From: Gemmatimonadota bacterium
GTDB lineage: Bacteria; Gemmatimonadota; Gemmatimonadetes; Gemmatimonadales; Gemmatimonadaceae
Length of the DNA stretch: 64,000 nt
Direction of reading: 5' to 3'
Assembly (NCBI GenBank): GCA_040389905.1
Contig: JAZJZK010000004.1
Span: 1 to 64,000 of the forward strand
A program made the position numbers and the translations under genes. The notes under the pieces are model-generated. The model saw only the letters and a program-made list of their open reading frames with translations. It was not told the DNA's origin and did no database searches. This document shows, one piece after another, positions 33,295 through 48,420 of this stretch (its first letter is position 1; each line of letters begins with the position of its first letter).

Positions 33295-33951
33295 CTACGC
33301 TTTGTTGCCGGCGGCGAGTTCACCGAGCCGCACGCGCGCTTCCGTGGCGAGCGCCGGGTTATCCGACTGATTCGCCAATCCCTCGAACACCTTCTGCGCC
33401 TCGGCACGCTTTCCCGCCGCCAGGTAGGCTCGACCGGCCTTCGACAGGAGGAAGGTCTTTTCGTTCGTCAGCTTCGTGAGACCGGCCGCCTTTTCATACT
33501 GCGCAGCGGCCTCAGCCGTTTTGCCAAGCTGTTCGAGGGCGTCTCCGAGTAACCCGCCAACCGACGCGGCCGCCGGACCATCCCCCACCTTCGACGCCAT
33601 CGCCTGCAAGAATGTCAGTGCGCCCTGGTTGTCGCCCTTCTCCAACCGGAGCTGCCCGATCAGCAAACCGGCCTCTGCGCCCGCCGGCTTGCTCCCGTAC
33701 TTGTCGTACACCTTCTTCAGATCGGCCTCCGCCAACGGCGCATTCCCGGAACTCAGCGACTGCTTGGCCACGAGAAGCTGCTTGTCCGAATTGATCGTCT
33801 CGTTCATGGCGGTGCGCTGCATGAACCAGAACACGAACGCGGCGACGACGACCACTCCGCCTCCGATCGTGACTATCCGGGAGTTGACGTGGAACCAGTC
33901 GATGAAACTCTCAGCTTTTGGCTGGTCGGGATCGTGAATCGGGCTCGTCAT
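33295..33951 (-). CDS. membrane-anchored TPR protein (YfgM-like)
   Basis: single N-terminal TM followed by TPR-like helices (LGDALEQLGK..EA...YEKA). Confidence 0.75.
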   Translation of the reverse strand: MTSPIHDPDQPKAESFIDWFHVNSRIVTIGGGVVVVAAFVFWFMQRTAMNETINSDKQLLVAKQSLSSGNAPLAEADLKKVYDKYGSKPAGAEAGLLIGQLRLEKGDNQGALTFLQAMASKVGDGPAAASVGGLLGDALEQLGKTAEAAAQYEKAAGLTKLTNEKTFLLSKAGRAYLAAGKRAEAQKVFEGLANQSDNPALATEARVRLGELAAGNKA

Positions 33952-34062
33952 TATTGAGGCGTCTCAAGTGCGCGCAGTTGGCGCCGTAGGCGGCGGGATG
34001 GAGGCGGATGTGAAGCCATGAAATGTAATCGGATCGAGGCGCGAGCGCATTCCCGCGCTGCT

Positions 34063-35190
34063 CTAGGTGGTACCGCCCTCAAGTGAGGAAACCCCGTTCG
34101 CCGTCGAGCGGACCCATTGGGTGCCCGCTCCGATGTAGCCTTTTGCGCGAAGCGGCCGCTGCGGTTCGTAGACAACCTTGATATGGTGAAGCGAGAGAAA
34201 GATCGTACTGAGCGAGCGCCGATTGAGGACCGCCGATGCCCGAAGCAGTGCGTCCGGCCAGACATCTCGGTGGTTCACCTCGTCCATCCACCCGTTGAAC
34301 GCGGCGAGCGCCCTGCGCTTTTCAGGAAGGCACAGACCGTCGCGTTCGAGCTCGGCAAGCCAGACCGGCCAGCGCGGCTCCCGGAAATACGGTGTGGAGA
34401 ACATCCCTTCGATCCCGATTCGGACAGCGACCTCCTCGCCGACATCGAGGTCGAGAAGGAGGACGTCCGGAAGCTGAAAATGACGCTGGATAACCGCCCC
34501 CACCGCCGCAAGCGAACCGCGCCAGCCGATCCGCGCGAGATACGGGACGATGTCCTCCGCCTTGATGTAGCTCACGACCAACCGCAATGCCGATGATGGC
34601 CGCTGCAGCATGGCGCCGACGTGCGTCACACTGGTTCCCGGAGGCTGTTCTGCGACGCACTTCTCGATCGTCGCGCGAGCCCGCGGTGACAAGCGCGCGC
34701 CGAGCAGAACGGGAAGCGCATCCTCAGTCAGCCATGGTCCGAAGGAACTCCCGCCGTCGATTCCCTCTGTCGGCCCAATGAAGACATTGGGTTCCGTTGG
34801 CAACTCCGAATCGGACCCATCATCCACGTCGAACTCCAGCCACATATTGCTCATGGTGCGCTCCAGGGCTGAGCCGGGCGACAACCAGCCGGCCGCGAGT
34901 GACTGGATACGTCCCCACGTCGAAGCTCCGCCGCCGGCTGGAGCGAAGGGATACGCCAGATTCTGTCCCGCGAGTGTTTCGCGCTCGCTCCCCTCCCCTC
35001 GAATCAGCACCAGCAAATCGGCGCGCGGCTCGGGCGAACCCAGCGGGCACTCGAAGCCGACTCGCGCGCTCAGCGTCCCAGGCATGTGGCGACAGATTCC
35101 CAATATCCTCGCCATGTTCTCGTGCGAGATGAGCGCTGGCTGAATTCGGCCCACCACCGGCCGAAGCATCTGATCGAGTGTCCAGCTCAC
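34063..35190 (-). CDS. uncharacterised RiPP-cluster protein; putative prenyltransferase (ABBA-like, inferred)
   Basis: GTG start overlaps the cyclase stop (GTGA); soluble ~375 aa with GFECPL, MWLEFD, IGIE, HHIKVVY...AKGY motifs; function inferred from context. Confidence 0.5.
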   Translation of the reverse strand: MSWTLDQMLRPVVGRIQPALISHENMARILGICRHMPGTLSARVGFECPLGSPEPRADLLVLIRGEGSERETLAGQNLAYPFAPAGGGASTWGRIQSLAAGWLSPGSALERTMSNMWLEFDVDDGSDSELPTEPNVFIGPTEGIDGGSSFGPWLTEDALPVLLGARLSPRARATIEKCVAEQPPGTSVTHVGAMLQRPSSALRLVVSYIKAEDIVPYLARIGWRGSLAAVGAVIQRHFQLPDVLLLDLDVGEEVAVRIGIEGMFSTPYFREPRWPVWLAELERDGLCLPEKRRALAAFNGWMDEVNHRDVWPDALLRASAVLNRRSLSTIFLSLHHIKVVYEPQRPLRAKGYIGAGTQWVRSTANGVSSLEGGTT

Positions 35191-36167
35191 GTCTGCATCG
35201 GTTCGGCAACGAAGCGACCGAGCACCGTCGCAATGGCCTGCGCGCAAACGACGGTGGTGAATACGCGAGCGCCGTAGAATTCAGGCAACATGTCGCGAAA
35301 AAAAGTCCCCGTCGCCCAGCCGCCGTCCGGCTGCTGCCGAGCGAGAAGCCAGTCAGCCGACTCCTCATCGCGCGGCCCTTCCGCGCCGGCGGAGAGCAGC
35401 GTCATGACCGCAAGCGCTGTTTCGAGATCACTTCCCCACCCGCCATCCGCATGTTGGGTGTGTCGCAGCCATGCGATAATCGGGTTCATTGTGCCTTCCA
35501 ACTCGGTGACTGCACCTCGCGCGAAGGCACGAGCGATCAGGTACGGCACCGCGAAGCGAGCAACGCCCCAACGATTGAGGATGTGGTAGGTCGAGCGTGT
35601 TGCAATGTGGTGAAAGAACGCGATCAACCGTGGATCAGGCCGCTTGAGGAGCCCCTGTAGCAGGAGCACGTTGGCATTGACCATGGAGTCCGGCAGTTCG
35701 AAGTCATGGGCGTTGATCTCCGGATCTCGCCACGTCTTGAATAACCCACATTCGGCGCGCAGGGGCTCGAGCGAGTCGAGCCACGCGTTGGCTTGCGTCG
35801 CAATCCTTTCGTCACCTGGATTCGCGACAAGACGCGCGGCGTAGGAGACGGACGTCGTATCGAGATCCGGGAGACGCTCTGGAAAGGCTGGTCCGAAAAA
35901 GCGCCACCATCCATCGGACTCCTGCGTTCGAGCGAGGTAGGCGTCGGCGCGTCGGAGCATCGGCGTCGCCGCGGGCGCCCGTGGTTCCATCGCCGCGAGT
36001 GCATCGGCAACGATCGCGTGAAGGTAGGGAGACTCGATGCGGCGCGCGCCAACCAGTCGCGGCGCGCTCGACACCTCGGTACGGAAGCCACCATCGGTCG
36101 ACTGCGCATTCGCGAGAAAGGACAACGCGCGATCCATTGCATCCGTCAGCTTCGAATGACTCGGCAA
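35187..36167 (-). CDS. class II terpene cyclase-like protein (prenyltransferase/squalene oxidase QW repeats)
   Basis: four QW-type repeats (LANAQSTDGGF, LARTQESDGWW, LRHTQHADGGWG, LLARQQPDGGW) and PDLDTT, resembling the DxDD(T) acid motif; AGGAG RBS before the TTG start. Confidence 0.75.
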   Translation of the reverse strand: MPSHSKLTDAMDRALSFLANAQSTDGGFRTEVSSAPRLVGARRIESPYLHAIVADALAAMEPRAPAATPMLRRADAYLARTQESDGWWRFFGPAFPERLPDLDTTSVSYAARLVANPGDERIATQANAWLDSLEPLRAECGLFKTWRDPEINAHDFELPDSMVNANVLLLQGLLKRPDPRLIAFFHHIATRSTYHILNRWGVARFAVPYLIARAFARGAVTELEGTMNPIIAWLRHTQHADGGWGSDLETALAVMTLLSAGAEGPRDEESADWLLARQQPDGGWATGTFFRDMLPEFYGARVFTTVVCAQAIATVLGRFVAEPMQT

Positions 36168-36293
36168 TCTCGACTCCTGACTCGCGCGCTGTGCACGCGG
36201 TGTGATCTACTACATTGAATTGTCGCGAATGGCGAACTAACGTTGGCCCGACAGAAACGAACGTCAAGCCGCCATAAGCTCTGAGGTACAGTC

Positions 36294-36614
36294 ATGGACG
36301 ACAAGGTACAATCGCGGAAAGATCTGGAAGCGAAACTCGTCGAGCTCGCACAAAAGGACGAGCAGTTCGCAGAAGCCCTTCGTCGCAATCCTCGCGCGGC
36401 GATCGAAAAGGAAATCGGCGCGCTACCCGAAGGCATGAACGTGAAGGTCATCGAAGAAGACGCAAACACCTTCTACCTGATCCTCCCACCGGCGGAGCAG
36501 ACCGGCGACTTCGCCCTCTCCGAGGAAGATCTCGCTTCGGTCGCGGGTGGATTGGGTGGACATACGGCAACGTGCTGTGGGTGCGTCGGCACGAACTGGC
36601 CGAAGTCAAAGTAA
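36294..36614 (+). CDS. NHLP-leader RiPP precursor A1 (core LGGHTATCCGCVGTNWPKSK)
   Basis: nitrile-hydratase-like leader (KDEQF...NPRAAIE...VIEE..NTFYLILP), LSEEDLASVAGG double-Gly site, GAGG RBS. Confidence 0.92.
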   Translation: MDDKVQSRKDLEAKLVELAQKDEQFAEALRRNPRAAIEKEIGALPEGMNVKVIEEDANTFYLILPPAEQTGDFALSEEDLASVAGGLGGHTATCCGCVGTNWPKSK

Positions 36615-36624
36615 CTGGCTCGCG

Positions 36625-36661
36625 CGAACGCTCCCCAAATCGGGGGCGCGCTCGTTTTTTT
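36625..36661 (+). terminator. terminator-like hairpin between the two precursors
   Basis: imperfect GC stem followed by TTTTTTT. Confidence 0.6.
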
Positions 36662-36714
36662 CTCGGCGTCGTATTCGCGCTCGCGCGCCGCCCCACACCT
36701 TCAGAGGCACAGTC

Positions 36715-37029
36715 ATGGACGAAAAAGTACAGTCGAGAAAGGATCTGGAAGCGAAACTCGTCGAGCTCGCACAGAAGGACGAGCAGTTCGCGGAAGCCCT
36801 TCGCCGCAATCCTCGCGCTGCGATCGAGAAGGAGATCGGCGCGCTACCCGAAGGCATGAACGTCAAGGTCATCGAGGAAGACGCCAACACCTTCTATCTC
36901 ATTCTTCCGCCCTCCGAGGAAACGGGCGACTTTGCGCTCTCAGAGGAAGATCTCGCCTCGGTCGCAGGTGGTGCACACACGGCAAGCTGCTGTGGCTGCA
37001 CCGGCACGAACTGGCCGCAGTCGAAGTAA
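36715..37029 (+). CDS. NHLP-leader RiPP precursor A2 (core AHTASCCGCTGTNWPQSK)
   Basis: leader identical to A1 at 83 of 86 residues, same GAGG.ACAGTCATG start context. Confidence 0.92.
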   Translation: MDEKVQSRKDLEAKLVELAQKDEQFAEALRRNPRAAIEKEIGALPEGMNVKVIEEDANTFYLILPPSEETGDFALSEEDLASVAGGAHTASCCGCTGTNWPQSK

Positions 37030-37050
37030 CCGACTCTCATGCCGATGGTG

Positions 37051-37089
37051 CGGGCGCGCTCCCACAGCGGGGGCGCGCCCGTTGCTTTT
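37051..37089 (+). terminator. rho-independent terminator after precursor A2
   Basis: CGGGCGCGCTCCC-loop-GGGGGCGCGCCCG followed by TTGCTTTT; lies between the convergent A2 and lanM genes. Confidence 0.7.
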
Positions 37090-40340: not shown

Positions 40341-41816
40341 CTAGGGATTCGTGTAAGCGCGGACCGACTGGCCCGTGTCTGCTCGATAGCGCACCACGGC
40401 ATTCACGAGGTCGAACCACGCGCGCGCCTCCTCGAACTCTGCCTGTGACTCTTGCTCCTCGTACTGAAGAAGGCGGAAGATATCCGAAAGTCCCAGAGCG
40501 AGTCGCTCGCGCTCCCCCTCATACTGCTCCCGCGCGAGCCGCATTGCCTCGGTACTGCGGGTCAACCGCTGGCGTCCAATCGTGATGCCGCGATACGCGG
40601 ACCGAACTTCCACGCGGGTGGCATTCTCTGCCTGCAGGAGCGCCAACGAAGCGCCTTTCGCAATGGCATCCGCGCGCTCGGCTTCTGCCTTGGCCGCATG
40701 GTTCCCGATTGGGTACGTGACGAGAAGTCCCGCGCGCCAGTCGGTCAACCGTGCCTCATTCGCATCACGCGCCGAGAATCCGGCGGCGTCTCTCGTGAAC
40801 GCGAGCGTGGAAAACCCTGCGGCCAGCCCAACGGACGGCCGAAGGTTGTCGCGTGCGAGGTCCAGCAACACGCGGCTTTGATCCAACTCGCTTCGCGCCA
40901 CGGCGATATCCGGCCGCTCGGTCAGCGCGGCGCTCACCGTCGTACCAAGTGGAGGCAATTCGGGAATGACGACTGCCGTATCGACCGCGAGCAGAAACTC
41001 GTCGTCCTTGAGCAATTCTGCGGGCGCGTTCTCTCCATACACCGCAAAGACCAGCGCATCCTGTGCATCATGCCGTGCCTGCATGAGCCTCAACAGCGCC
41101 GCCTGGCGAGAGGTAACGCCAAGTCGAGCGGTCGTGAGGTCGATCTCCGTGATCCGGCCGATGCGACGCAGTTCGAGGTTCGCCACGAGCAGATCCTCAG
41201 CCCGTTTGAGCGAGCGTTCTTCTACGGCCTGCGCCCGTTCCTGCTCGACGAGTAGGTAATACGCCGCTTCGATACGCGCTACCGTCTCGTTCTGGATTTG
41301 CGCCAGGCGGGCGCGCGCGGCATCGACGCCGAATTCCGCGGCGCGCGTCGGAGCCGTGGTCGCTCGGCTGCGGAATCCGCGCAGCAGCGGCTGCACCACG
41401 CTGGCCGAGAAAGTGTTCTGGGCGAGCGGTTCTCCGGGGAGCGCAGACTGGAAGCCCGTGCCGACCTGATAGGTAGTGCCGGTGCGCAACGCACCCTGCA
41501 CCGCTCCCGTGTAAAGCCGACTCGCCAACTCGGAGCTTTGGCCGGCCAGCACGCGTCCATTGGAGGTGTAGGTCGGTCCAATCTGAATGGCCGGATCGAA
41601 CGCCGATTGCGCGGCAAGGACGGCACTCGATGACGCACGCGCGCTGACGCCCGCCTGACGAACATCGAGGTTTCGCTGCAGCGCGATGCGCACCATGTCT
41701 GCGAGACGAATGCGGAGCGTGTCGTCGTGCACCGATTCGTCATGCGCCGGTTGAGCCATCGCGCGACTGGCCAGGAGCGACGCGAGAAGAATCGCGGCAG
41801 CGTGTCGTCGCGTCAT
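40341..41816 (-). CDS. TolC family outer membrane efflux protein
   Basis: signal peptide, ALQRN.D, AFDP, QPLLRG, RPD, two helical efflux repeats. Confidence 0.88.
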   Translation of the reverse strand: MTRRHAAAILLASLLASRAMAQPAHDESVHDDTLRIRLADMVRIALQRNLDVRQAGVSARASSSAVLAAQSAFDPAIQIGPTYTSNGRVLAGQSSELASRLYTGAVQGALRTGTTYQVGTGFQSALPGEPLAQNTFSASVVQPLLRGFRSRATTAPTRAAEFGVDAARARLAQIQNETVARIEAAYYLLVEQERAQAVEERSLKRAEDLLVANLELRRIGRITEIDLTTARLGVTSRQAALLRLMQARHDAQDALVFAVYGENAPAELLKDDEFLLAVDTAVVIPELPPLGTTVSAALTERPDIAVARSELDQSRVLLDLARDNLRPSVGLAAGFSTLAFTRDAAGFSARDANEARLTDWRAGLLVTYPIGNHAAKAEAERADAIAKGASLALLQAENATRVEVRSAYRGITIGRQRLTRSTEAMRLAREQYEGERERLALGLSDIFRLLQYEEQESQAEFEEARAWFDLVNAVVRYRADTGQSVRAYTNP

Positions 41817-44722
41817 GTGGTCTGCCGAGCCGCCAGCTTGGCGAACAGACCATCGCGCGCCACGAGGTCTTCGTAACGACCCTCCTCCACAATGCGGCCT
41901 TCGTGCATGCTGAAGATGCGATCGGCGTTCCTGATGGTGGAGAGACGATGCGCGATCACCACGCGAGTCGCCTGAAGCCGCTCGAGACTCTTGCTCACGG
42001 TTTCCTGCGTCCGGTTGTCGAGGGCACTTGTTGCTTCGTCGAAGAAGATGATACGCGGCTTCTTCACGAGGGCTCGCGCGATCAGCAGCCGCTGACGCTG
42101 GCCACCCGACAACGCCGTCGCGCCCTCACTGAGCACCGTATGCATTCCCATTGGCATGAGCCGAATGTCATTCGCAAGTCCCGCCATCTCCGCCGCCTCC
42201 CACACGTCGTCCAGACTCAGCGGAGCCGCGCCCGCGATGTTGGTGAAGATGTCACCGGCGAGGATGCGACTCTGCTGTAACACAACGGCACATTGGCTGC
42301 GGACCGCTGAGACGTCCACGGAGGAAAGGTCCTGCCCGTCAAAGATGACGGCTCCACGCTCGGGACGTTCGAAGCCTAGGAGGAGCCGCAGGATGGTGGA
42401 CTTCCCTGCCCCTGATGCGCCAACGAATGCCACGAATTCGCCTGGCCGTATCTGGAATGAGACGTCCGAGAGGATGGGCGGCCCGTCGGCGAGATAGCGG
42501 AACGTGACGTGTGATACCTCGATCCGTCCGGTCAAGAGGCCCGGGTCGGGCTTGAGCTCGTCCACCTCGGGCGGCGTGACCAGGATCGGCCGTGCGCGCT
42601 CCAACATCGGAATGATGTTCAGCAGACTGACGGCTGTGGTACTCATCTGCGTGCCAGCGGTCAGGAACGCACCGAACGCCGCATAGAACGCCATGAAGTC
42701 TCCGGTCGAAAGCGTCTGGCCGGCCCCGGCGTCCGAGCCGGAGATGAACACGAGAAAGAGGACGATCGCCGCGACCGTCGGAAGCGTTTCGTTGAACACG
42801 GTGACGGCCGCCTGACTGAGCCCCATGCGGTAGGACACCGCCTTCTGGTCGCGGAAGATGGCGCCCCACACGGCAAAGGCACGACGCTCAGCGGCCGCGA
42901 CGCGAAGCTTCGCGATGCCGCCGAGGATCTGGAAAAGCAGCGCGCCCACTCGTCCCTGTATTTCCTGCCGTTGTCGCTCGAGCCGGAGGGTGTGCACACC
43001 TAACGCGCCAGTGACGAGGACAGAGACGACGAACACGCCAAGTGCGACGAGCGCCAACTTGCCGCTGTACTTGATCATCAGAAACAGGTTTGCCACTACG
43101 AGCATGCCGCCGAGCAACGCAGTGATGGCGGCGCCGCTGAGGAGTTCTCGCACGCCGTTGATGGCCCCCGCACGAAGCGACAGATCGCCGACGCTGAAGC
43201 GCCGGAAGAATGGGACCGGAAGCGCGAACAACCGATCCACGAGTGCGGCTTGGAGCGTCGCGTTGGAACGTCCTTCGAAGCGCACGAGCGCCATCGCGCG
43301 CGCGAGATCCACCAGGCCGCCGCCAATCGCCATACCAGCCAGTGCGCCAAACAACGCGAGCGCATTGCTGATCTGCGCACTCGGAATGACGGCGTCGAAA
43401 ATCTTCTGCGTGGAGATCGGAAGCGCGAGACTCAGGAGGCTCGATGCCACCGCAAACAGCAGAACGCGTCGAAGATCGATCCATGCCTCGATGCCCGCCA
43501 CGCGGGCAAGCACTTTGAGATCGATCGGTCCACTCGGCGCGGGGCGGTAGAACATGTATCCCACCGCCTCGAGCGTGCCGGCCACTTCCTTCGTCACGAT
43601 TTCACTCGTTCCGGTGGCTGGGTCGCGGAGCGTGTAGATCCCTTCGACCGAGGAGAGCAGCGCGACGGGAGCATTCCCTTCCGAACGGTAAGCGAGGAGG
43701 GGCCCGCAATCCGTGCTCCACCACTCGCCGCGCAGGACCACCCGCCGATGGCGGACGCGCGAAGCCCGACAGATCGCGCCGAGGCGGTCGCGCCAACGTC
43801 CGCTCTCCTCCCAGCTTGGCGGCGCCCGGAAAACGATGCGTGCGGAATCACCAACAAGCCGACACGCCGCGAGCAGCGGATCCGACGTTTCGAGCAACGG
43901 TGGAGCAGCGCCGCGGGAGGTGCCGAGGACACTCGCGAGGCCAGTCATGCTCAGCGCCTCGAGTTCTCGCTCCTGATCCGCCTTCCGTCGCAGCCGCTCG
44001 CGATCGGCCTGCATCGCGCTCGCGGTACCTTTCGCCGCCCAGGAGAGAAACGCGCCGCGGACGATCTTCAGCGCCGGCCGCACATTGCCGTGTGCCAAGG
44101 CGTTTTCGGTGCTCACCGCGGTGAGCGTGGCCTTGGCAGACGTGACGGAGTACCACATGCCGCGCGCCAACGGCAGCGCGGCGCTAGCCTCCAGAGGCAC
44201 ATCATTGGCGAAGGCAAGCTCGCCGTCGCTGGCAGAAATCCAGCACACTGCGCGCGGCGCTCCAACCGACGCAGCGCGTTGGAGGCTGAGCGGTTCCGCG
44301 TCGAGTTCGATATCCACCACTGGTCCGTGCGACGTGGCCGCCATCGCGCGGGCGAACGTTTCAGCGACTCGCTCGGCAAGCGGTGCCGACCAGCCGCTGT
44401 GATCGTCGAGCGCCGATTCCGGAACCGCACGGATCCGAGCCGCGCCGGCCGCAACAGCGATCAGCGTCGCGGTGCCGTCTGTGGTGCCTCCGCCGAGGAC
44501 CACCTCGTTCGCCCAGAGCGTCGTGAGAAAGTGGAGCGGCCCGAATTCGCCGTCCGGCCTCTTTTCCGCGAAAAAGATGTCGACTTCACCCTTGAGCACG
44601 ACCCAGAGTGTGTCCGGATCATCGAGTGGGAGTGGCGTGTTCCCGGGTAGCGTGCGCACTGCCCCCGGCAATGCCGCGTCGCTCAGTTGCGGCTGGATGA
44701 GGTCTGACCTCGCTTGGCGCAC
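41813..44722 (-). CDS. NHLP bacteriocin export ABC transporter permease/ATPase (no peptidase domain)
   Basis: N-terminal cNMP-binding-like segment, TM domain, GASGAGKS, LSGGQRQR, FDEATSALD; GTG start chosen at 44722. Confidence 0.88.
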   Translation of the reverse strand: MRQARSDLIQPQLSDAALPGAVRTLPGNTPLPLDDPDTLWVVLKGEVDIFFAEKRPDGEFGPLHFLTTLWANEVVLGGGTTDGTATLIAVAAGAARIRAVPESALDDHSGWSAPLAERVAETFARAMAATSHGPVVDIELDAEPLSLQRAASVGAPRAVCWISASDGELAFANDVPLEASAALPLARGMWYSVTSAKATLTAVSTENALAHGNVRPALKIVRGAFLSWAAKGTASAMQADRERLRRKADQERELEALSMTGLASVLGTSRGAAPPLLETSDPLLAACRLVGDSARIVFRAPPSWEESGRWRDRLGAICRASRVRHRRVVLRGEWWSTDCGPLLAYRSEGNAPVALLSSVEGIYTLRDPATGTSEIVTKEVAGTLEAVGYMFYRPAPSGPIDLKVLARVAGIEAWIDLRRVLLFAVASSLLSLALPISTQKIFDAVIPSAQISNALALFGALAGMAIGGGLVDLARAMALVRFEGRSNATLQAALVDRLFALPVPFFRRFSVGDLSLRAGAINGVRELLSGAAITALLGGMLVVANLFLMIKYSGKLALVALGVFVVSVLVTGALGVHTLRLERQRQEIQGRVGALLFQILGGIAKLRVAAAERRAFAVWGAIFRDQKAVSYRMGLSQAAVTVFNETLPTVAAIVLFLVFISGSDAGAGQTLSTGDFMAFYAAFGAFLTAGTQMSTTAVSLLNIIPMLERARPILVTPPEVDELKPDPGLLTGRIEVSHVTFRYLADGPPILSDVSFQIRPGEFVAFVGASGAGKSTILRLLLGFERPERGAVIFDGQDLSSVDVSAVRSQCAVVLQQSRILAGDIFTNIAGAAPLSLDDVWEAAEMAGLANDIRLMPMGMHTVLSEGATALSGGQRQRLLIARALVKKPRIIFFDEATSALDNRTQETVSKSLERLQATRVVIAHRLSTIRNADRIFSMHEGRIVEEGRYEDLVARDGLFAKLAARQTT

Positions 44723-44723
44723 G

Positions 44724-46922
44724 CTAGCTCTCCCGGGCGAGCGTGGCATACAGGCCGTCCGGATCACGCATCAGCGTGTCGTGCGTGCCTCGCTGTACCA
44801 CAGCACCTTCCTTGAGCACAACGATTTCGTCGGCATCGCGGATCGTCGACAGCCGGTGCGCGATGATGACGCATGTGCAGCCGCGCCGACGCAAGCTCCT
44901 GTCGATTTTGTGCTCGGTGACCGAGTCGAGCGCGCTCGTGGCTTCGTCCAGCACCAGCAGCCGAGGAGAAAGCACCAACGCGCGTGCAATTTCCAGCCGT
45001 TGCCGCTGGCCGCCGCTGAAGTTGGCTCCGGCTTCCTCGACCTGGCTCTCGTACGCGCCCGGCCGAGACATGATGTCGTCGTGAATCGACGCATCGCGGC
45101 AGGCCTGCATGAGCACCGCCTCGGGAACCGTCGAGTCCCAGAGGGTCAGGTTCTCGCGGATGGTCCCGGCAAACAGCGAAATCTCCTGGTCCACCAGCGC
45201 GACAGAATTCGCGAGCACGCGTCGCGGCCACGCCGTACGCGCCTTGCCGTCGAACAGCACGTCCCCTTCCCACGGGTCGTAGAGACCCGTAGCCAGTCGT
45301 GCCACTGTGCTCTTTCCGCAGCCCGACGGGCCAACGAGCGCAACACGACGCCCCGACCGCATGCGTAAATCAAAGTTCTTGAGCAGCGGCGCCGCCTGCC
45401 TCGAATAACCGAAGGTGACACTGCGGAGCTCGAATGCCCCTTCGAGCCGGTCTTCCGCGCCTTCCTGATCCTCTGCCGCGGTGAGCCCAATCCGGCTGTC
45501 CGCCGGGTATTCCAACACGTCCTGCACTCGTTCCATGTTGCCGTGCATTTCCTGGACGGAGCTCGCGAGCTGCACGAACGACGCGACGGGTTGAAGGAAG
45601 CTGGCCATCAAGCTCTGAAACGCGACGAGCATTCCAATGGTGAGATCACCCTCGATGACGCGATACGCGCCGAACGTGAGGACGATCGCATTGGTCATGG
45701 TGATCGTGAACGCCGGCACCACGAGGAAGGATTGCGTGACACGCGCCAACGACTGTTGCGCCATGAGATACTTCGCCTGATAGCCGGCCCATCGCGCGAA
45801 CACGTCACTTTCCGAAGCGCCGGCCTTGAGCGTCTCGATCGCGCTGAGTCCTGCCATCAGTGTTCCCGTGGACTTTCCTGCCTCCTGCAGCACGCGGCGA
45901 TTGCCGTCGACTCTGCGCCGGTTGACGACGACCGTCGATCCCGCCAGCACGGCGACCGCCAGCACGCCGAACAGGGTGAGCAGCGGATCGTACGCCAACA
46001 TCAAGGCGGCGTAAAACACGACGAGCAGGGCGTCGATCGCCGTCGAGGCCAGCTTGCGCGACACGAATTCCGAGATGGTGTCGTTGATCGCCACACGCGA
46101 GCTGATCTCGCCGCTGTAGCGTTGCGCATAGAACTCGACAGGAAGCCGGAGCAGATGCGAGAGGAAGCGACTCGAGGAGCTGATGGAAAGCTTCGTATCG
46201 AGCCGCAACAGGTAGTAGTGTTGCAGCCACCCGAGGGCCGCGCGCACGACGGCGGTCAGCCCCATGCCCAGCAGCAGCGGACGGAGCCAGTCGCGCAGGT
46301 TATGCACGAGCACCTGATCGACGAACACCTGCGTGAATGCAGGAAGCGCGAGTCCCGGTACGACCAGCGCGAGGCCGGCAAGCAGCGCAAACGTCAGGGC
46401 ATTCTCGGAACCGCGGACACGCTCGCGCAGGAGCGCGACGAGATTTGGCGGCGCGCCACCCGGCGTGAATTCGGATGTGCGCGCGAACTCGAGGACGACT
46501 CCAGTGAAGCCCTGATCGAACTCGTCCTTCGTGATGCTATAGGGGCCCTGCGCCGGGTCGTTGAGGTAGTAGCGATCGTCGAGGACGCCCTCGAGGACGA
46601 GAAAGTGATTGAAGTTCCAGAAGACGATGGCTGGAAATACGGTGCGGCCCATGTCCTTCAGCTCGCGCCGGAACCCCTTCGCCTCCAGTCCGTAACTTCG
46701 TGCAGCTCGCAAAAGAACCGCGGCGTTCGAGCCGTCGCGCGAAACACCGCAGGCAATGCGCAACTCCTCGAGTGGCACGCGACGTCCGTGAAACGCGAGC
46801 ACCATTGCGAGTGAGGCTGCACCGCACTCGACCGCCTCCATTTGGAGGATGGTCGGCGTTCTGACACGCGTACCTTCTGGGCGGCGGGGGAAAAACGCCC
46901 GCAGCCGCTGCAGCCTAGACAC
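44724..46922 (-). CDS. NHLP bacteriocin export ABC transporter with C39 peptidase domain (LanT-type)
   Basis: QMEAVECGAASL (catalytic Cys), WNFNHF (His), NDPA; GPSGCGKS, FSGGQRQR. Confidence 0.92.
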   Translation of the reverse strand: MSRLQRLRAFFPRRPEGTRVRTPTILQMEAVECGAASLAMVLAFHGRRVPLEELRIACGVSRDGSNAAVLLRAARSYGLEAKGFRRELKDMGRTVFPAIVFWNFNHFLVLEGVLDDRYYLNDPAQGPYSITKDEFDQGFTGVVLEFARTSEFTPGGAPPNLVALLRERVRGSENALTFALLAGLALVVPGLALPAFTQVFVDQVLVHNLRDWLRPLLLGMGLTAVVRAALGWLQHYYLLRLDTKLSISSSSRFLSHLLRLPVEFYAQRYSGEISSRVAINDTISEFVSRKLASTAIDALLVVFYAALMLAYDPLLTLFGVLAVAVLAGSTVVVNRRRVDGNRRVLQEAGKSTGTLMAGLSAIETLKAGASESDVFARWAGYQAKYLMAQQSLARVTQSFLVVPAFTITMTNAIVLTFGAYRVIEGDLTIGMLVAFQSLMASFLQPVASFVQLASSVQEMHGNMERVQDVLEYPADSRIGLTAAEDQEGAEDRLEGAFELRSVTFGYSRQAAPLLKNFDLRMRSGRRVALVGPSGCGKSTVARLATGLYDPWEGDVLFDGKARTAWPRRVLANSVALVDQEISLFAGTIRENLTLWDSTVPEAVLMQACRDASIHDDIMSRPGAYESQVEEAGANFSGGQRQRLEIARALVLSPRLLVLDEATSALDSVTEHKIDRSLRRRGCTCVIIAHRLSTIRDADEIVVLKEGAVVQRGTHDTLMRDPDGLYATLARES

Positions 46923-48171
46923 CAAGCCACCTGCGCAGCGCTGGGATGACCAGCGCAATCGGCGCTCGGCGTTGAATCACGATCTTTCCGTCCAGAAGCG
47001 TTCCACTGCCGAAGGTCATCGGTGGTCCGTCGCCGGTCGTCCACGCGAACCCACTTGGCGTCGCTGGATTTCGGTCTACCGTCACGTCCACGAGGTATGC
47101 GCCGCCGCGCGACGTGAACTGGTTGACCAACACGTCATTCTTCAGGTAGCGATGAAGCGCCGTGCCGCTGATCGGTGCCAACGAGACGGAATGGACGGTT
47201 CCCAGGAAGTAACCGCTTTCCTCTGGCTTGACGCCGCCAGGAACCATTTCGACGCGCATCCCCGGACGTATCCGCTTCCCTTCCAGCGGAATAAAGAGCG
47301 AGACCTGAATGGGTACCGTCGACGACTCCAGCGTGACGATCGGTGTGTGGCTGGAAATTGCCTGACCGGCATCGACGAGTTGCTCCACCACGACGCCGTC
47401 GTAGGCGCTGGTTACGTTGGCCGCCGCCGCGAACTGTTCCTTCTGCGCCGCCAACCGGTGCTCCGCCTCCCAGATCTGCTGGTCGAGCGTGAAGACCGTT
47501 TGACTGCTCTGGCTCGTCAGTTGAGAGACTCTGGCGGCGAGTTCCTGCTTCCGCGCCAACGCCCCCATGAGTTGTTGCTCGGATTCACCGCGCTGTGCGA
47601 TGGTGCCCTGCGCCGCATCGGGCGTCAACAGTCCGCGCTTGAGCGCTTGTGCCTCCAGCGCGATCCGATCATCCAGGTACTTCACCCGGTCGCGAGCGGC
47701 GACGATTGTCGCGTCCGCCTGCTTTTGCTGCTGGTCGATCGACGCGAGCTCGAGGCGCTTGCTGGACTGGACGAAGGGCACCGTCGCGGCGCGGTTTCGG
47801 CGCAGCTGTTCGAGGGTGACCTCTGTCTGCGCCACGGCGGTTTGCAACTCGGGCTGTGCGAGGATCGCGACCACCTCCCCTTTGTGCACTGGCGTGCCGG
47901 GCCGCGCGACCATCTGTTCGATCTGCCCGGCGCCATTGGATTGGACCCGGAACAATCCGCCTTCACGAATCATCAGGCCGGATCCGGCGATGGCCTCGGG
48001 GATTCGCCCGAACACTCCCCAACTCAGGGCCCCAACGACCACAGCACCAAGCGCTGCCAGTGCCATCCAGCCCTTGAGGGTAGTGACCTCCATGAGCGTG
48101 TCCAACCGCTCCGGGCTGGACAGTCGCTCGAGCGCCACAGCGCGAAAGAGGCGGCGCGGGTTGCCAGCCAT
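46915..48171 (-). CDS. NHLP bacteriocin system secretion protein (HlyD family)
   Basis: FRAVALERLSSPERLD N-terminus, one TM, coiled coil, beta-barrel C-terminus. Confidence 0.9.
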   Translation of the reverse strand: MAGNPRRLFRAVALERLSSPERLDTLMEVTTLKGWMALAALGAVVVGALSWGVFGRIPEAIAGSGLMIREGGLFRVQSNGAGQIEQMVARPGTPVHKGEVVAILAQPELQTAVAQTEVTLEQLRRNRAATVPFVQSSKRLELASIDQQQKQADATIVAARDRVKYLDDRIALEAQALKRGLLTPDAAQGTIAQRGESEQQLMGALARKQELAARVSQLTSQSSQTVFTLDQQIWEAEHRLAAQKEQFAAAANVTSAYDGVVVEQLVDAGQAISSHTPIVTLESSTVPIQVSLFIPLEGKRIRPGMRVEMVPGGVKPEESGYFLGTVHSVSLAPISGTALHRYLKNDVLVNQFTSRGGAYLVDVTVDRNPATPSGFAWTTGDGPPMTFGSGTLLDGKIVIQRRAPIALVIPALRRWLGV

Positions 48172-48273
48172 GATGGAGGTTTCCGGGCTCCGCAGGCGAG
48201 GCCTCGGAGCGTGCTAGAGACGAATGCTGTCGTTGGGAGAGATGGAAACCGACGACGTCGTGCGGATAGGAAA

Positions 48274-48347
48274 TACCCTCGGGCGGACTCGAACCGCCGG
48301 CCAACGGTTTAGGAAACCGCTGCTCTATCCACCTGAGCTACGAGGGC
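48274..48347 (-). tRNA. tRNA-Arg(CCT), CCA not encoded
   Basis: GCCCTCG acceptor stem, TAGCTCAGGTGGATAGAGC D-arm, GCGGT-TTCCTAA-ACCGT anticodon arm, GGTTCGAGTCC T-arm. Confidence 0.95.
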
Positions 48348-48420
48348 AACGACTTCCCTCAAACTAGCAAGAGCGTTCGCCGCGCGGAACACTCGTTTGT
48401 GATGCGAGAACCTCGAGTCA

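Follow-up and report, generated by a model that had tools for sequence, protein, structure and literature searches.

A predicted class II terpene cyclase paired with a predicted peptide prenyltransferase in a lanthipeptide cluster of Gemmatimonadota

What does a free-standing terpene cyclase act on when its gene lies in a cluster for a peptide that is made on the ribosome and modified after translation (RiPP)? This question is raised by a Gemmatimonadota contig (JAZJZK010000004.1, assembly GCA_040389905.1), of which we analysed positions 1 to 64,000, here called the window (64,000 nucleotides). In the window, the gene for a protein of 326 amino acids (aa) with the features of a class II terpene cyclase overlaps the gene for a predicted prenyltransferase of the ABBA fold, within a lanthipeptide cluster. 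We consider it likely that the cyclase closes rings in a prenyl chain which the transferase has first put on the single Trp of the lanthipeptide.

The cyclase gene and its predicted fold

The cyclase is encoded on the minus strand by a single uninterrupted frame (Table 1), with AGGAG located 6 nucleotides upstream of its TTG start codon. The public gene call (P0003) begins at an ATG at 36137, 10 codons downstream of the TTG, and gives 316 aa; residues are numbered here on the 326-aa form. QxxDGx[WF] repeats are present at residues 22, 82, 238 and 278. In a shuffle control none of 20,000 sequences held two or more such repeats and 63 held one, and among the 5,678 stop-to-stop frames of at least 250 aa in the genome only the cyclase frame held four, with two frames holding two. 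Positions 33500-36350, which cover the cyclase frame and the transferase junction, showed 0 differences from a contig of run X1, which may be the source of the DNA and so is not independent.

The predicted structure of the cyclase is a single alpha/alpha-toroid domain (pLDDT 95.6, pTM 0.93). The top 31 of the best 50 matches listed for this model were class II cyclases or close homologues, and the beta-domain match spanned the entire 326 aa. The closest solved relative was the beta-domain of drimenol synthase (AsDMS) and AstC, not MstE. Profile alignment placed D103 of the DLDTT motif in column 117, the same column as D323, which is the general acid of AsDMS (PMC12232559), and 95% of the cyclase relatives have Asp in this column. 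Fold and acid are defined in the family by 18 residues that are invariant or nearly so, and all of these are largely kept. We predict from the model that the protein is a single-domain class II terpene cyclase in both fold and acid motif. The protein does not fit a squalene-hopene cyclase: these are two-domain beta-gamma proteins of about 630 aa, and the corresponding model, TIGR01507, scored 44.6 bits against a cut-off of 431.

An earlier, sequence-only reading of this DNA had reported the 326-aa frame, the four repeats and the DLDTT motif, all confirmed here, and had proposed a monodomain class II cyclase, which is supported by the structure model and its matches. It had set DLDTT beside DxDD; the motif is indeed present, but as DxDTT, a known variant of DxDD and not an oddity (PMC9128629). 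It had also reasoned from the monodomain state and from MstE to an acceptor-bound substrate. Here the cyclase class held up, whereas AsDMS/AstC proved a nearer precedent than MstE, and because AsDMS and AstC use free farnesyl diphosphate, the monodomain state by itself does not imply an acceptor-bound substrate.

The partner transferase, its peptides and a proposed pathway

The GTG start codon of the transferase gene overlaps the stop codon of the cyclase gene (GTGA), the two being read in two frames with the cyclase first. Divergent from the cyclase gene lies precursor 1, which has a core of 20 residues with 3 Cys, 4 Ser/Thr and one Trp; precursor 2 has a core of 18 residues with 3 Cys, 5 Ser/Thr and one Trp. 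Both have a long leader with an L(X)4L motif and a LanM partner, as defined for the substrates of the transferase MppC. The two precursors (36294-37029) have near-identical leaders, differ mainly in the core and are oriented opposite to the rest of the cluster. The precursor 2 and lanM genes converge, with a terminator-like hairpin between them. LanM kinase and cyclase motifs were found in a motif scan. The cluster is an inserted block between a TPR gene and tRNA-Arg; of 36 genomes from the same genus, at least 26 have these two features no more than about 320 bp apart.

Table 1. Features of the inserted block and its boundaries in the window
Feature	Coordinates	Strand	Basis or remark
TPR gene, other boundary of inserted block	33295-33951		
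Predicted ABBA-fold peptide prenyltransferase, 375 aa	34063..35190	-	Predicted fold
Predicted monodomain class II terpene cyclase, AstC/drimenol-synthase beta-domain type, 326 aa	35187..36167	-	Main finding
DLDTT acid motif, residues 101-105, D103 predicted general acid	35853..35867	-	Profile alignment to AsDMS
NHLP precursor 1, 106 aa	36294..36614	+	TIGR03793 71.3 bits, cut-off 50.9
NHLP precursor 2, 104 aa	36715..37029	+	TIGR03793 71.7 bits
GC-rich terminator-like hairpin, 14-pair stem	37050..37082	.	Consensus match only
Class II lanthipeptide synthetase LanM, 1077 aa	37098..40331	-	TIGR03897 819.5 bits, cut-off 304
TolC-like outer-membrane efflux protein	40341..41816	-	PF02321
NHLP export ABC transporter subunit 2	41813..44767	-	TIGR03797 875 bits, above cut-off
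C39 peptidase-ABC transporter, for cutting off the leader and for export; approximate start codon	44724..46958	-	TIGR03796 1044 bits, above cut-off
NHLP HlyD adaptor	46915..48171	-	TIGR03794 283.7 bits
tRNA-Arg(CCT), one boundary of inserted block	48273..48348	-	ARAGORN

We examined 37 loci holding relatives of the transferase (18 regions picked from 30 other genomes and all 19 of a second set), and then all 8 same-genus loci. Cores were parsed by pattern, with unparsed or truncated precursors dropped and with related genomes that are not independent; on this basis Trp was present in 31 of 35 parsed cores, against 9.3 expected, and 19 of 22 loci had a Trp core. LanM was present in 12 of the 37 loci and in 7 of the 8 same-genus loci. 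A strong cyclase-family match was found in seven of the 37: L062 and L064, which have a stand-alone cyclase and a radical S-adenosylmethionine (SAM) gene and in which LanM was not seen, and five srp-like clusters, in which the cyclase is fused to an NHLP leader. One further locus, L035, holds a transferase-cyclase fusion beside lasso-peptide-like genes. In a draw of 401 genomes from the phylum the transferase was present in 31, the cyclase in 19 and both in 17; the two genes lay within about 10 kb of each other in 15 of the 16 genomes other than G000, these 16 representing two families and one cluster type.

Several of these loci merit description in their own right. The fusion at L035:7027-10943 has 721 aa; its neighbours are a small open reading frame and genes for PqqD-like and HPr-kinase-like proteins, an arrangement that resembles a lasso-peptide cluster. 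YcaO clusters with the transferase (L036:5233-6534, L037:5226-6554, L046, L047 and L049) encode a DxDST cyclase with an N-terminal NHLP-leader-like fusion, and one of this group has an LCCCW core matching the srp sponge clusters. At L039, L041 and L048 the transferase stands by precursors with five-residue, Cys-rich, Trp-free cores, with no cyclase in the fetched stretch. A conserved protein of 400-617 aa adjoins the transferase at L050, L053, L055, L057, L059, L060, L061 and L068, often with LanM. It matched no family among the Pfam and NCBIfam models scanned, gave a weak cyclase-profile match and, in the four read, had no clear DxDD; it is possibly another tailoring enzyme.

From the arrangement in the window we infer the following chemistry, including its acceptor, chain length and order. 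LanM would put up to three (methyl)lanthionine rings into the CCGC-containing cores, and the ABBA enzyme would move a farnesyl or geranylgeranyl group to the Trp indole, probably engaging the NHLP leader. The distal double bond would then receive a proton from D103, a decalin or larger ring system would form through a cation cascade, and the C39-ABC/HlyD/TolC machine would cut off the leader and export the product. The sequence-only reading had proposed that the enzyme cyclises a prenyl chain bound to the peptide, by acid catalysis; the predicted ABBA partner, the Trp cores and a published fused precedent support this. Chemistry of this kind has been described before, for the fused prenyltransferase-cyclase RiPP maturases NctPC and ChrPC (Hubrich et al., Chem 2024, via the review PMC13290415). 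By that account an ABBA transferase and an MstE-like cyclase form one chain in NctPC, which puts a geranylgeranyl group on Trp before cyclising it; ChrPC is the trans-isoprenyl diphosphate synthase-like counterpart of NctPC.

The order of transfer before cyclisation is favoured by the diphosphate clamp. In AsDMS the substrate phosphate is held by R368, R370, R415, Y416 and probably R503 (PMC12232559). In a profile alignment these correspond in the window cyclase to F156, L158, R199, W200 and L294, so that one of four clamp Arg residues is kept, three are replaced by hydrophobic residues and the mouth is mostly hydrophobic. Transfer of a drimenyl diphosphate, moreover, needs a primary cation described as highly unstable (PMC12232559). 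The loss of most of the clamp and the instability of this cation together favour transfer first.

Relatives of the cyclase and other explanations

The window cyclase belongs to the large AstC/drimenol-synthase beta-domain family, which counts 727 representatives at E 1e-30 or better. A quick tree placed it in a clade of 10 (SH-aLRT 100) which includes four full fusions to isoprenoid-synthase-like domains and two fragments of such fusions; one member, 43% identical, lies directly downstream of a Trp_DMAT gene. The RiPP-linked cyclases (L062, L064, the srp-like clusters and P0180) lie elsewhere in the tree, outside this clade. P0180 holds both families in one chain, with 26% identity to the window transferase over 357 aa, and a UbiA domain was found in 4 of 18 long cyclase-family matches scanned. 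We infer that the cyclase domain has been repeatedly re-paired with different transferases.

Further relatives illustrate this range of partners. P0042, P0043, P0046, P0054, P0056 and P0088 have the cyclase fused to an isoprenoid-synthase-like domain without a Pfam match. In the large multidomain proteins P0136, P0137, P0153 and P0162, UbiA and the cyclase are joined to PhyH, to TPR domains or to both, an arrangement that suggests meroterpenoid synthases in a single chain. The closest stand-alone relative with context (L088:84-3920, 43%) follows radical SAM and Trp_DMAT genes on a 4.9-kb contig in which no precursor was seen.

A number of observations weigh against a cyclase acting on prenylated Trp. 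For the closest solved relatives, AsDMS and AstC, the substrate is free farnesyl diphosphate. The clamp residues were mapped by profile alignment and not by superposing side chains, conservation of the clamp is poor in the cyclase family as a whole, and other Arg residues, R199 and R291, could stand in for it. The cation-pi aromatic Y417 of AsDMS, Tyr in most relatives, is Gly201 in the window cyclase (by alignment, F271 and F308 of AsDMS map to Y48 and F90), a replacement that from the sequence could mean either a larger pocket or a damaged one. Of the 155 aligned sequences, 6 share with the window cyclase a Thr at the fourth position of the acid motif, and 113 have DxDDT. Trp transferases such as ChrP are marked by a Gln in front of the second Asp-rich motif (PMC13290415); six of seven isoprenoid-synthase-like fusion partners do not have it, so the nearest-clade relatives give no independent indication of a peptide substrate. 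Trp-free cores occur at 3 of 22 loci. Finally, none of 19 other loci with LanM and transferase holds this type of cyclase in the fetched stretch, and the pairing of LanM, transferase and cyclase therefore rests on a single genome.

One unlikely alternative is that the cyclase is a recent passenger of the island, inactive or acting on another substrate, and that the cluster makes a linear-prenyl lanthipeptide like the MppC-type clusters. Such clusters without the cyclase do exist: 8 of 54 same-genus genomes (L108-L116) have NHLP or LanM clusters with the transferase and varied cores, which are candidate prenylated lanthipeptides, and no cyclase in the fetched stretch. The other partners of the nearest relatives and the departures from family consensus (Y417 to G, D to T) fit this explanation as well. 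However, the cyclase frame is intact and preceded by a ribosome-binding site, the fold and acid residues are largely kept, the gene is translationally coupled to that of the transferase, and in L062, L064 and the srp-like clusters transferase and cyclase again occur as split pairs.

We also regard as unlikely a route in which free geranylgeranyl diphosphate is cyclised to a bicyclic labdane-type (allylic copalyl-type) diphosphate, which the ABBA enzyme then transfers to the lanthipeptide Trp. This route requires geranylgeranyl and not farnesyl diphosphate, because drimenyl diphosphate must ionise to a primary cation, which makes the farnesyl version chemically unlikely (PMC12232559). Its attraction is that the closest solved relatives use a free diphosphate with the same DLDTT motif, that R199 corresponds to AsDMS R415, that the nearest clade has an invariant Arg close to the mouth loop, and that this clade is fused to an isoprenoid-synthase-like domain. 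Hydrophobic residues stand in place of three of the four clamp Arg, however, and both characterised RiPP systems transfer first (PMC13290415). We found no report of cyclisation before transfer on a ribosomal peptide in the literature searched, most subscription papers being outside the search; were it true, the order would be reversed relative to NctPC and ChrPC.

It is improbable that the pair acts as we propose on another acceptor (Cys, His, Ser/Thr or the N-terminus). Several residues are modified by peptide transferases of the ABBA fold (PMC12715784), and the Trp-free loci and a modest enrichment of Cys in the parsed cores (12 against 6.6 expected) would suit this. The enrichment of Trp is much stronger, however, and the Cys residues of the window cores are the expected substrates of LanM.

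Protein prenyltransferase beta subunits bind zinc through DxC...H ligands. That the window protein is such a beta-subunit-like enzyme, itself transferring a prenyl group to Cys, was the less likely alternative of the sequence-only reading and is very improbable: the common alpha/alpha-toroid fold is all that speaks for it (PMC12324236), whereas a Pfam scan gave no PF00432 match, the protein has no DxC pair and 2 Cys in total, the inserted block holds no alpha-subunit gene, and the class II acid motif is in register with AsDMS while a separate transferase adjoins.

Comparison with known systems

As far as the review PMC13290415 reports, only two enzymes that give ribosomal peptides a cyclic terpene group have been characterised, both fused. 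The same literature search turned up no lanthipeptide cluster reported to contain a stand-alone AstC-type cyclase. As a natural split version, the pair allows transferase and cyclase to be assayed separately, and so offers a direct test of the order of steps and of the cyclase's need for the leader. It could also show whether the large AstC/drimenol-synthase beta-domain family mostly acts on acceptor-bound prenyl chains, and a free-standing peptide-terpene cyclase could be combined with other Trp transferases in lipopeptide engineering.

The gene pair is likely a two-gene variant of the recently described fused enzyme. Like NctPC, by its description, it joins an ABBA peptide transferase and a monodomain class II cyclase with a Trp-containing core. 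Unlike NctPC and ChrPC, it consists of two unfused genes with the cyclase first, and the window cyclase is nearer AsDMS/AstC than MstE, whereas the NctPC domain is MstE-like in the account of PMC13290415. The cyclase thus likely works like the C domain of NctPC without being a member by the fusion criterion. In the mpp system MppC carries out leader-dependent geranylation of Trp in a LanM product, and MppC with MppM/MppE resembles the window in its ABBA transferase, class II LanM, long L(X)4L leader and core Trp; unlike the window, the system as described in the available text of PMC12715784 includes no cyclase, and its leader is Nif11-like rather than NHLP.

The beta-domain of AsDMS (PDB 9MHS, 9M7D-F) and AstC has the DxDTT motif in common with the window cyclase, at 18% identity. 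As judged from its sequence, the window cyclase is nonetheless not a drimenol synthase: unlike AsDMS/AstC it has no HAD phosphatase domain, keeps one of the four clamp Arg and has Gly for Y417, and its gene sits in a RiPP cluster. With the merosterolic acid synthase MstE (PDB 6SBB) it shares a stand-alone beta-domain and a predicted acceptor-bound prenyl substrate.
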